Below are positions 5,463-7,132 of a DNA stretch of 8,071 nt, piece by piece. The notes under the pieces were generated by a model. That model did no database searches and was not told the DNA's origin. It worked only from the letters and a program-made list of their open reading frames with translations. The position numbers and the translations under genes were made by a program. Source of the DNA: a virus (lineage: Duplodnaviria > Heunggongvirae > Uroviricota > Caudoviricetes); IMG/VR virus record IMGVR_UViG_2778261570_000006, one strand, 5' to 3'. The stretch's first letter is position 1; each line of letters starts with the position of its first letter.

Positions 5463-5501
5463 GTCGAACCTCCTTTGGTTCTGTTGATTGGGGAATCACA
5501 G

Positions 5502-5541: not shown

Positions 5542-6678
5542 ATGGTTAAGGCTAAAAACATGCCAAATCCCATGCCAAATCCCATGCCAAAAACTAAGGC
5601 AAACAACGAGCCTTATCGCAAGGTAAAAATAACGATATGGGATGATCCCAAATTTAGGGCGTTATCTCCTCTGCCTCCAAGTGGACAGAGTTTGTTTATT
5701 TATCTGCTGACCAGTCCATTTACCGGGATTATTCCTGGGTTGTTTAAAGCCGGGCGGGCAGCAATGGCTGAAGAGTTGGGGTGGGATATCGAAGCCTTTG
5801 ACTTAGCCTTAGGCGAAGCCATGAATCTTGGCATGGTGAAAGCAGATATCAAAGCCAGAGTTTTTTGGCTCCCGAATGCTGCGAAACACAATCCGCCAAA
5901 CTCGATAAATGTCATTAAATCCTGGGCAAAGGCATTCGCTTTAATTCCTGATTGCCCTCTCAAATGGGAGGCCAGGGAATCGCTGAGAGCCGCGTCCTAC
6001 GGGGTTTCTGAGGCTTTGGGGATGGCATTCGATAAGGCAATCCCTTTGCCTGAGGATAAGCCTAAGGATAAGGCTAACGCTTTGTCATGCGGTATCCAGA
6101 TAACAGATAACAGATATATAAACCCCACACATAACGCGCGCGTGCGCGAGAGTGTTCCGGCCAGTGAGGCAAATGGCGTGCCGTTGCAGACAGCGGAACC
6201 TGATTACCTGGAAGGCCTGAGCGAACCCATCGGGAAATTTCCGATGACCGATGGCTGGCATCCGTCGCCGGATTTTCGACGACGGGCTGCGCTGTGGGGC
6301 GTGGCTCTTCCTGAGCCGGAATTTACACCAGCTGAACTTGCCGCCTTCCGGGACTACTGGACAGCGGAGGGGAAAGTTTTCACGCAGGTTCAGTGGGAGC
6401 AGAAATTCGCCCGTCACGTACATCACGTCAGGGCGCAGGTTAAACCAGTCAGCAAGGGGGGGAACCATGCAGCAACGCCAGGTGGCACCGCATCACGGGC
6501 AGTTCAGGAAATTCGGGCAGCACGTGAGCAGTGGGAACGTGAAAACGGATTTATCCTCGACGGAAACGGCGTGGAAGCTGTGGGAACTCATGGGGGAGGT
6601 TTATTCGAACCGCTGGACCCAGAAGAACGGGGCCGCACCTTCGAAGCTCTGGATTGCACAGATTGGTGCGATGACTGA
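5542..6678 (+). CDS. Phage replication initiator / replisome organiser with DnaT-like C-terminal domain (O / YdaU-position), about 378 aa
   Basis: Track ORF 5488..6678 begins at TTG. The first in-frame ATG with an SD is 5542 (GAGG at 5533-5536, 5-nt spacer). The C-terminal block [43 protein letters not shown] resembles DnaT-like domains as I recall them. The last 212 nt overlap the P-like frame. Confidence 0.6.
5560..5594 (+). repeat. In-frame 12-bp tandem repeat ATGCCAAATCCC, about 2.9 copies, encoding [11 protein letters not shown]
   Basis: Exact copies at 5560-5571 and 5572-5583, and a partial copy at 5584-5594. Each unit starts with an in-frame ATG. Confidence 0.85.
6031..6148. repeat. 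Iteron-like GATAA repeats, AT-rich tract and GC palindrome inside the initiator gene; candidate replication origin
   Basis: GATAAGGC at 6031-6038, GATAAGCCTAAG / GATAAGGCTAAC at 6055-6078, CAGATAA x2 plus CAGATAT at 6097-6117, ATATATAAA, then ACGCGCGCGTGCGCG at 6134-6148. This sits in the predicted linker between the N-terminal domain and the DnaT-like domain. Confidence 0.35.
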
Positions 6679-7132
6679 GCAGCAAATCCGACAGGTCTGC
6701 CGCCAGTGCATGGACCGCTGCCGGGCGGGTGAAACATGGCCTCCGGACCTGGCTGAGTTTGTTGCGCTGATTTCGGAGAGTGGGGCAAATCCATTTGGTC
6801 TGACGGTGGATAACGTGATGGAGGAGTACCGCCGCTGGCGCAACGAGTCCTGGCGATACGACGGGAGCGATAAATACCCGTGGTCTCAGCCCGTGCTGTA
6901 TCACATTTGCCTCGAGATGCGGGCAAAAGGGATTGAGCGTCAGATGACCGAAGGGGAGTTAAAACGACTTGCAGAACGGCAACTAGCGAAATGGGCAAAG
7001 CATGTTGGTGACGGCTTCAGCGTTCCGCCCGTCCGGCGGCAACTGGTAGCACCAAAACGCCCGTCGGGGCCAACTCCAATTGAGTTGCTGAAACAGGAAT
7101 ATGAACGCCGGAAAGCGGCTGGGTTTGTTTGA
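6467..7132 (+). CDS. Lambda P-like replication protein (helicase loader), about 221 aa
   Basis: In frame with track ORF 6251..7132. Start set at ATG 6467, preceded by AAGGGGGGG. The segments [21 protein letters not shown] and the C-terminal part resemble lambda P (ESYPWKS, TMEQV) as recalled. Frame-2 translation upstream of 6467 is Arg-rich junk. ATG 6590 and ATG 6671 are alternative starts. Confidence 0.6.

Follow-up and report, generated by a model that had tools for sequence, protein, structure and literature searches.

In bacteriophage λ, the C-terminal part of the initiator O contacts the helicase loader P. Overprinted overlaps are found in other viral genomes, such as those of φX174 (genes A/B/K and D/E) and MS2 (gene L), and overprinted regions generally encode disordered protein. 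In λP, domain I is a disordered segment of about 29 residues, which precedes the compact domains (PMC12661323). DopC/DopE and similar pairs consist of an O-like protein featuring a DnaT C-terminal motif and a P-like protein (Brézellec et al. 2017, PMC5509034). Here we describe an initiator gene and a P-type helicase loader gene (hereafter P) present in the virus record IMGVR_UViG_2778261570_000006. The whole stretch analysed, 8,071 nucleotides (nt) in length, is referred to as the window, and all features map to the + strand. The initiator gene (5542-6678) terminates at a TGA codon (6676-6678), and the start codon of P (ATG, 6467-6469) is located upstream of this stop. The open reading frame (ORF) list, the sequence and the comparison of homologues all define an out-of-frame overlap of 212 nt (6467-6678), in which P is read in the +1 frame with respect to the initiator. 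We estimate at about 0.8 the probability that these are two separately translated genes, which overlap out of frame by 212 nt without any recoding, in a conserved dual-coding arrangement.

The homologue set comprised nine aligned homologues and 21 loci obtained from one-genome-per-species contigs, and conservation was counted on 29 loci. In 27 of these, distributed among 13 enterobacterial genera (Escherichia, Salmonella, Citrobacter, Enterobacter, Klebsiella, Phytobacter, Scandinavium, Pectobacterium, Erwinia, Serratia, Samsonia, Yersinia and Pluralibacter), the codon of the invariant Trp50 residue of the loader is followed by a further 29-101 nt of initiator ORF. A Shine-Dalgarno sequence (SD) followed by an ATG is conserved in the 29-locus set 149-221 nt upstream of the initiator stop, a distance which corresponds to the length of the overlap measured from the conserved ATG. 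The initiator stop codon is found at the same position in 12 of the 17 lineages compared. The two exceptions are a Leclercia locus, apparently frameshifted, and an orphan P gene located in an Erwinia chromosome, in which stop codons are present in the former initiator frame.

The orphan gene (L026:2459-3043, Erwinia sp. MMLR14_017) encodes a P-type loader and has no initiator gene upstream. It follows an A+T-rich spacer, lies beside a gene similar to those encoding the EIIC component of the phosphotransferase system, and may be the remnant of a prophage or else a domesticated loader. We used the gene as a natural control.

Given the P protein and the local codon usage, the probability that the initiator frame remains open across the 69 overlapping codons is 0.039 in the window and ranges from 0.008 to 0.10 in 16 other lineages. 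The first ORF-openness test, an exact dynamic programming procedure, took the observed stop as given and is in this respect circular. It was superseded by a fixed-length test, in which openness over at least 22 codons is evaluated against the empirical stop density. In the region encoding P only, stops in the initiator frame occur at 0.054 per codon (115/2121). In every lineage, the initiator frame is open for at least 22 codons from Ala36 of P, with a joint probability of 3e-7 for 14 representatives. The open initiator frame is not a frozen accident, because one change synonymous in P would truncate the tail of the initiator. Both ORFs are open across diverged homologues beyond what is expected by chance.

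Selection on the two frames was analysed in nine lineages by sorting per-site variability according to codon phase. Variability is highest at the third position of initiator codons (0.45-0.6) from 6230 to about 6550, an interval that takes in the first ~85 nt of P, and at the third position of P codons from about 6560 onwards, where the last ~120 nt of the initiator lie. Amino-acid-level selection therefore changes frame about halfway through the overlap, at about 6550-6560, acting on the initiator before this point and on P after it. No P-frame codon signature was detected by this analysis in the leader of P.

The fraction of synonymous differences in P is 0.519 in the overlap and 0.576 elsewhere, and the expected depression is not significant (Mann-Whitney p = 0.15). 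After this null result, a claim of position-specific dual constraint was replaced by composition tests, in which the residues observed in one protein were compared with those obtained by synonymous recoding of the protein in the other frame. The tail of the initiator is enriched in acidic residues (115 Asp+Glu versus 83.6±5.2 in stop-free recodings of P) and in glycine (72 versus 48.5±3.7), and is depleted in basic residues (40 Lys+Arg versus 72.3±5.8), with z-scores of about 6 in magnitude. The bias is due to the specific enrichment of third-position G before P codons starting with a purine. In four-fold degenerate P codons preceding a purine, the third position is G in 66% of cases in the overlap and in 32% of cases in the P-only region, whereas before a pyrimidine the proportion is 30% in both. 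The enrichment in the purine context is observed in 14/14 lineages (Wilcoxon p = 6e-5). The leader of P is similarly biased with respect to recodings of the initiator, as hydrophobic (71 versus 109) and basic (41 versus 70) residues are rarer, and Ser, Thr, Asn and Gln (173 versus 125) are more frequent. Since the constraint at single positions is weak, the initiator tail is constrained in composition and not in sequence. Selection is detected on both frames within the overlap; the second-frame constraint is compositional rather than positional, and the overlap is truly dual-coding. An earlier note on this DNA had listed a true long overlap among four possible explanations of the locus. The maintenance of both ORFs, of the SD and ATG and of the overlap in 27/29 loci, together with selection in both frames, strongly supports that option.

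The folded part of P (6545-7132, stop codon at 7130-7132) is delimited by Pfam, PHROG and Foldseek matches and by the P-frame codon signature, which is visible from about 6560. Residues 56-188 match Pfam family PF06992 (60.8 bits, cut-off 26), and residues 19-220 match phrog_109, annotated as 'P-like helicase loader' (E 2.4e-61). P and the initiator tail were modelled with AlphaFold2 (AF2) from shallow alignments of 10-20 sequences. The P model has a mean predicted local distance difference test score (pLDDT) of 76.7, and the significant PDB matches retrieved by Foldseek are exclusively λP chains (9oa1, 9oa2 and 8v9s). Domain III superimposes on its λP counterpart with a template modelling (TM) score of 0.90 and a root-mean-square deviation of 1.1 Å, and the hhalign probability is 92%. 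P hence combines a family profile above threshold with the λP fold, and by homology may be expected to bind DnaB and to deliver it to the initiator-origin complex. The first 26 residues (6467-6544) form a leader that is variable and polar in composition, is predicted to be disordered (pLDDT <50) and overlies the sequence encoding a helix of the initiator. By its position, the leader is equivalent to the disordered domain I, or 'N-terminal lasso', of λP.

The extent of the overlap depends on where translation of P begins, and database records disagree on this point. Many place the start at Met42 (6590-6592; about 180 amino acids (aa)), older ones at 6467 (221 aa), and RefSeq genomes annotated with the Prokaryotic Genome Annotation Pipeline (PGAP) at Met69 (6671-6673; 153 aa). 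At 6467, all lineages preserve the nucleotides of the ATG, although the initiator residues read across them differ (xAT Gxx, encoding His, Asn or Asp followed by Ala, Val or Glu), and a strong SD precedes the codon at proper spacing in nearly all lineages. The mean energy of the duplex with the anti-SD sequence in 17 lineages is -9.1 kcal/mol at Met1 and -5.0 kcal/mol at Met42, against a background of about -2.8 kcal/mol. According to the RefSeq annotation, which is found in the E. coli genomes inspected and in two phage records, the P frame upstream of 6671 would be untranslated, and P would be expressed by termination-reinitiation through an 8-nt overlap (ATGACTGA) including the initiator stop. 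The ATG lies 2 nt before this stop, in a geometry typical of translational coupling. However, the P-frame signature of purifying selection begins at about 6560, 110 nt further upstream, and residues 36-68 include the invariant Trp50, Lys53, Asn54, Gly55, Pro58 and Trp62. Residues preceding Met69 are covered by the Pfam and PHROG profiles and by AF2 helices, 5 lineages have Leu or Phe in place of Met69, and the SD at this site does not exceed background (-3.1 kcal/mol). The supported start is located 209 nt upstream of the initiator stop, and the stop-start configuration (ATGA/TGATG type, as in λ O-P) is not supported for the pair; we judge the 6671 start to be wrong, its chance of being correct being very small. 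A start at Met42, with an overlap of 89 nt and the SD and ATG at 6467 used little or never, is improbable, but has more in its favour. Met42 is invariant in 20/20 aligned homologues, is the first residue of many database entries of about 180 aa, and is preceded in several lineages by a GGGAG-like sequence, with the mean duplex energy given above. This SD-like sequence is, however, only 2-3 nt from the ATG. Moreover, the motif AWxLWExMxEIYSNRWxxKNG, which starts at residue ~36, upstream of both Met42 and Met69, is kept in the P frame even in the orphan Erwinia gene, where no other ORF could explain its conservation. The phrog_109 profile aligns from residue 19, the first AF2 helix (residues 25-46) spans Met42, and the ATG and strong SD at Met1 are conserved as nucleotides independently of the initiator residues they encode. 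Met42 is accordingly not regarded as the main start, and could be a secondary one giving rise to a shorter isoform. P most plausibly initiates at 6467, as suggested by these sequence comparisons, and is probably a protein of about 221 aa, from which the 153-aa RefSeq model omits about 68 residues, including part of the invariant core.

The start at 6467 brings into play the G7 run (6456-6462), which is read AAG GGG GGG in the initiator frame, corresponding to a (K)-Gly-Gly sequence in a linker, and which the earlier note had suspected to be a slippery site, a phase-variable tract or an indel artefact. Its reading of the run itself, of the P-frame ATG at 6467, of an initiator frame open for 212 nt beyond it and of a P frame open from 6251 is borne out by the sequence, and so is the additional role assigned to the run as SD of P, given a duplex energy of -11.0 kcal/mol (background mean -3.0). 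Of the two outcomes it gave for a one-G change, fusion of the initiator to P follows from a loss (529 aa from ATG 5542); upon gain of a G, the initiator ends at 6525-6527, and not at 6522, a minor slip. Programmed recoding or switching at the run, by -1 frameshifting on G_GGG_GGG, transcriptional slippage or slipped-strand phase variation, would yield fused or truncated products, and the heptamer formally fits the X_XXY_YYZ pattern in the initiator frame. In addition, some database proteins read the -1 frame past the run (P0160) or change frame within the overlap (P0106 and P0190), and the profile phrog_15931 covers both proteins. The heptamer, however, is not conserved. Among 78 close relatives taken from 80 IMG/VR loci added to the analysis, G7 is present in 6 and G6 in 1, while 68 carry the non-slippery G5 form GGGGGT(A/G). 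G7 is found in 3/29 of the first set of loci, and other genera carry GGAGGT at this place. As the overlap is exactly 212 nt in 78/78 relatives, these differences are substitutions and not the result of slippage. Run-length variants of ±1 were found neither among these loci nor among the closest E. coli genomes. When queries carrying G6, G7 or G8 were compared with 5426 E. coli genomes, the top matches to all three spanned exactly 101 nt, and only the G7 query found a perfect (100%) match, in one complete genome. Tract-length polymorphism among strains, the hallmark of a phase-variable switch, is hence missing from both samples. No conserved or unusually stable structure was detected downstream of the run (RNAalifold -4.7 kcal/mol, covariation +0.25, single-sequence z-score -0.59), in a survey that did not include an explicit pseudoknot search, and no conserved RNA structure was found around the P start and the G run. 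The -1 frame is not conserved and is a dead end of 21 codons (stop at 6525-6527), and P is encoded in the +1 and not in the -1 frame. The database proteins that switch frame contain several further frameshifts, which point to sequencing errors. Homologues also retain the extended C-terminal tail of the initiator without a G run, an outcome that the earlier note had itself named as part of what would refute it, and we consider recoding or switching at the run most unlikely. That the overlap is an assembly or sequencing artefact of the homopolymer is scarcely credible. Homopolymers are error-prone, and some database entries for the region are visibly frameshifted, but with G7 both ORFs have the lengths and ends conserved in more than 100 independent loci featuring a non-homopolymeric site, and the 101-nt stretch around the run is matched at 100% by a complete genome. 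G7 is the length that keeps both conserved ORFs intact. It is the only run of at least six G or C residues in the window, where 0.42 G runs of seven or more are expected, and is as such unremarkable. The run is neither a frameshift site nor a switch nor an error, but an ordinary SD variant.

The P frame is open upstream of its start codon as far back as 6251. This extension (6251-6466) is not coding in the P frame, as shown by homologues and by codon phase, which reveals selection in the initiator frame only. The T-to-G change that creates G7 abolishes a TAA/TGA stop located two codons 5' of the P ATG; the extension is found only in G7 variants, because the T present in the majority form generates this stop. 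It is a by-product of the G7 variant, and the openness of the P frame in this interval is incidental.

Some additional features of the P start region and of database entries are worth reporting. The Gly-Gly pair of the initiator linker (KGG, TGG or RGG) and the following His/Asn/Asp-Ala/Val/Glu residues (6466-6471 in the window, and homologous positions elsewhere) are dictated by the SD and ATG of P; the translation signal of P thus shapes the protein sequence of the upstream gene. In Serratia montpellierensis (L023:2407-2470), the first P ATG has a weak SD, whereas the ATG found five codons further on follows an AGGAGGT sequence. The start of P may thus differ by a few codons between lineages. 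P0106, P0160 and P0190, along with the merged profile phrog_15931, were considered as natural initiator-P fusions and rejected, given the presence of several frameshifts elsewhere in each. In P0157, a deletion joins the initiator helix to the C-terminus of P. These four proteins, in which other frameshifts are present, look like products of homopolymer or long-read errors or of degraded prophages. The phrog_15931 profile ('unknown function', 482 positions) matches the initiator at positions 164-347 and P at positions 262-482, and was seemingly either built around fused or frameshifted initiator-P sequences, or chained via the overlap.

The initiator sequence encoded in the overlap includes a 19-residue C-terminal helix (6487-6543) and a distal tail of about 43 aa (6547-6675), which overlies the sequence encoding the first helices of P. 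The helix is supported by selection in the initiator frame, by AF2 (residues 84-102 of the modelled fragment, block-mean pLDDT about 47-59) and by its co-inheritance with P. The tail is acidic and Gly-rich, is predicted by AF2 to be disordered (fragment residues 104-146, pLDDT <50), and is further supported by frame openness and composition. The helix-plus-tail module is attached to different initiator bodies. It is found behind DnaT bodies (the window, L015, L016 and L023), a Phage_rep_O body (L020), an HTH_36 body (L021) and bodies lacking a recognised Pfam domain (L022, L024, L025 and L029). A DnaT-domain initiator without this tail was also identified (P0168). Since the same tail occurs behind unrelated bodies, and DnaT initiators may lack it, the tail goes with P and not with the initiator body. 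An exhaustive search with the 74-aa tail yielded 27 hits. Those hits that were full-length initiators (317-360 aa) carry the tail at their C-terminus, and several others, Gly-rich repeat proteins, were matched spuriously. When the C-terminal fragment or a tail profile was used as query, mostly short partial proteins were retrieved, which were of no help in counting initiator architectures. The helix is proposed as the docking element for the loader, because it is inherited together with P after at least three kinds of body that differ in Pfam domain, and after several with no Pfam match, and by analogy with λ O. It is likely to be the element that recruits the P-DnaB complex, and the acidic tail may have a charge-dependent role.

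Several observations weigh against the arrangement proposed here. RefSeq/PGAP starts P at 6671, and many records start it at Met42. Taken position by position, synonymous sites of P are only weakly constrained in the overlap. AF2 predicts the helix of the initiator tail with no more than modest confidence (pLDDT about 50-60), from shallow alignments. The roles of the helix and of the acidic tail rest on inference and on the analogy with λ O, and no sequence similarity was found between the tail and the λ O C-terminus. Finally, the lineages share ancestry, and joint probabilities and z-scores are consequently overstated. This last objection is eased by the finding that a sign test on the about 8 effectively independent lineages still gives p about 0.004, and by the direction of the composition bias, which is identical in every distant lineage.

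In the proposed arrangement, the initiator would be read through to the TGA at 6676-6678, and its C-terminal module would comprise a Gly-containing linker, the 19-residue helix and the disordered tail of about 43 residues. P would be translated from the ATG at 6467 by means of the SD embedded in the linker codons, starting with a polar leader of ~26 residues, and its core would begin at about 6545-6560. The structured element of each protein would thereby be overprinted by the disordered extension of the other, the extensions being held only to composition. The overlap might keep the interacting partners genetically linked during mosaic recombination. Whether it is an adaptive genetic interlock, in which a docking helix and an acidic tail share nucleotides with the 5' end of the loader gene, is a conjecture that we advance tentatively, as the odds are somewhat against it. 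If this were true, mosaic recombination among lambdoid phages would swap initiator bodies, and with them origin specificity, but would never separate the interface from the loader. The acidic, Gly-rich tail would be a charge-dependent hook or a DNA mimic, and the polar leader of P a λP-like 'lasso'. The locus would also represent a previously unrecognised case of reciprocal overprinting in a core replication module.

The overlap offers a natural example of reciprocal overprinting in two essential replication proteins, with a sharp hand-over between frames, kept across enterobacterial genera. The transferable C-terminal helix-plus-tail module is a likely initiator-to-loader adaptor, and may provide a handle on how diverse initiators recruit a λP-type loader. 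The mis-annotation of P in RefSeq is likely widespread, as this region is found in about 1170-1300 of the 5426 complete E. coli genomes. The overlap is apparently undescribed. Literature searches found no description of it in the titles and abstracts listed, and one of them retrieved only general work on overprinting, although coverage was incomplete and novelty is not proven.

The window corresponds to the early region of a Rac-like lambdoid prophage of E. coli, and the interval 6100-6800 is 99.7% identical to the TUM1881 chromosome. In RefSeq, the matching region includes recE, kilR, a RelBE pair, a CI-like repressor, a Cro-like regulator and a YdaT-family gene, followed by genes annotated as 'DnaT-like ssDNA-binding domain-containing protein' (ssDNA, single-stranded DNA) and 'replication protein P'. 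The initiator gene, a 'replisome organizer' with a DnaT-like domain, was assigned on the basis of the ORF list and of Pfam, PHROG, PDB and RefSeq matches. Its start is ambiguous. The ORF is open from a TTG at 5488, ATG codons at 5542 and 5560 are candidate starts, and PGAP starts the gene at the ATG at 5764. The protein matches PHROG families of replication initiation and primosomal proteins. Its DnaT-like ssDNA-binding domain (6238-6438) is supported by a match to Pfam PF17948 (aa 251-317, E 1e-17), by AF2 helices with pLDDT values of 70-87 and by the initiator-frame codon-phase signature. A profile of the C-terminal fragment matches the DnaT structures 6aep, 2ru8 and 4ou6 in the PDB (E about 1e-22). 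The initiator therefore carries the C-terminal ssDNA-binding domain that typifies DnaT-domain phage initiators.

Repeated sequences are also present in the initiator gene. A 12-nt tandem repeat (CATGCCAAATCC, about 2.6 copies, 5559-5603) encodes 11 residues near the N-terminus of the protein. Possible origin-like features occur in the interval 5926-6142. Repeats of GATAAGGCnAnCsCTTTG are located at 6031-6048 and 6067-6084, with a weaker copy at 5926-5943, and tandem GCCTrAGGATAA sequences at 6048-6071 are followed by an A+T-rich stretch (ATAACAGATAACAGATATATAAACC) and then by a G+C-rich block (CGCGCGCGTGCGCGAG). These features resemble those of λ, in which the ori iterons sit within O.

The order of the two genes, initiator and then P-type loader, the λP fold and a disordered N-terminal segment corresponding to λP domain I are shared with the λ O-P pair. 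In contrast, the λ genes (38686-39585 and 39582-40283) overlap by 4 nt, whereas the overlap described here spans 149-221 nt, and the initiator features a DnaT-like domain in place of the C-terminal domain of λ O, to which its tail shows no detectable similarity. In DopC/DopE too, the gene for an initiator-like protein bearing a DnaT C-terminal motif immediately precedes a λP-like gene, but neither an overlap nor a helix or an acidic tail is mentioned in the report on these proteins (PMC5509034), whose text does not contain the word 'overlap'. Known -1 frameshift sites, such as those of dnaX (A_AAA_AAG) and of the tail-chaperone G/GT genes (G_GGA_AAG), similarly place an X_XXY_YYZ heptamer at a two-frame junction. 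At variance with these sites, the heptamer is here not conserved and not associated with a stimulatory structure, the -1 frame is a dead end, and the downstream gene, in the +1 frame, is equipped with an SD and an ATG of its own. The overlap is more akin to the overprinted genes of φX174 and MS2, being out-of-frame, extending over tens of codons and conserved at great evolutionary distance, with an imposed region that is predicted to be disordered and is compositionally biased in both products. It differs from them in being reciprocal and terminal, with a hand-over in the middle of the overlap, and no new gene is embedded in an older one. Reciprocal, terminal overprinting in a core replication module, conserved across genera, is unusual.

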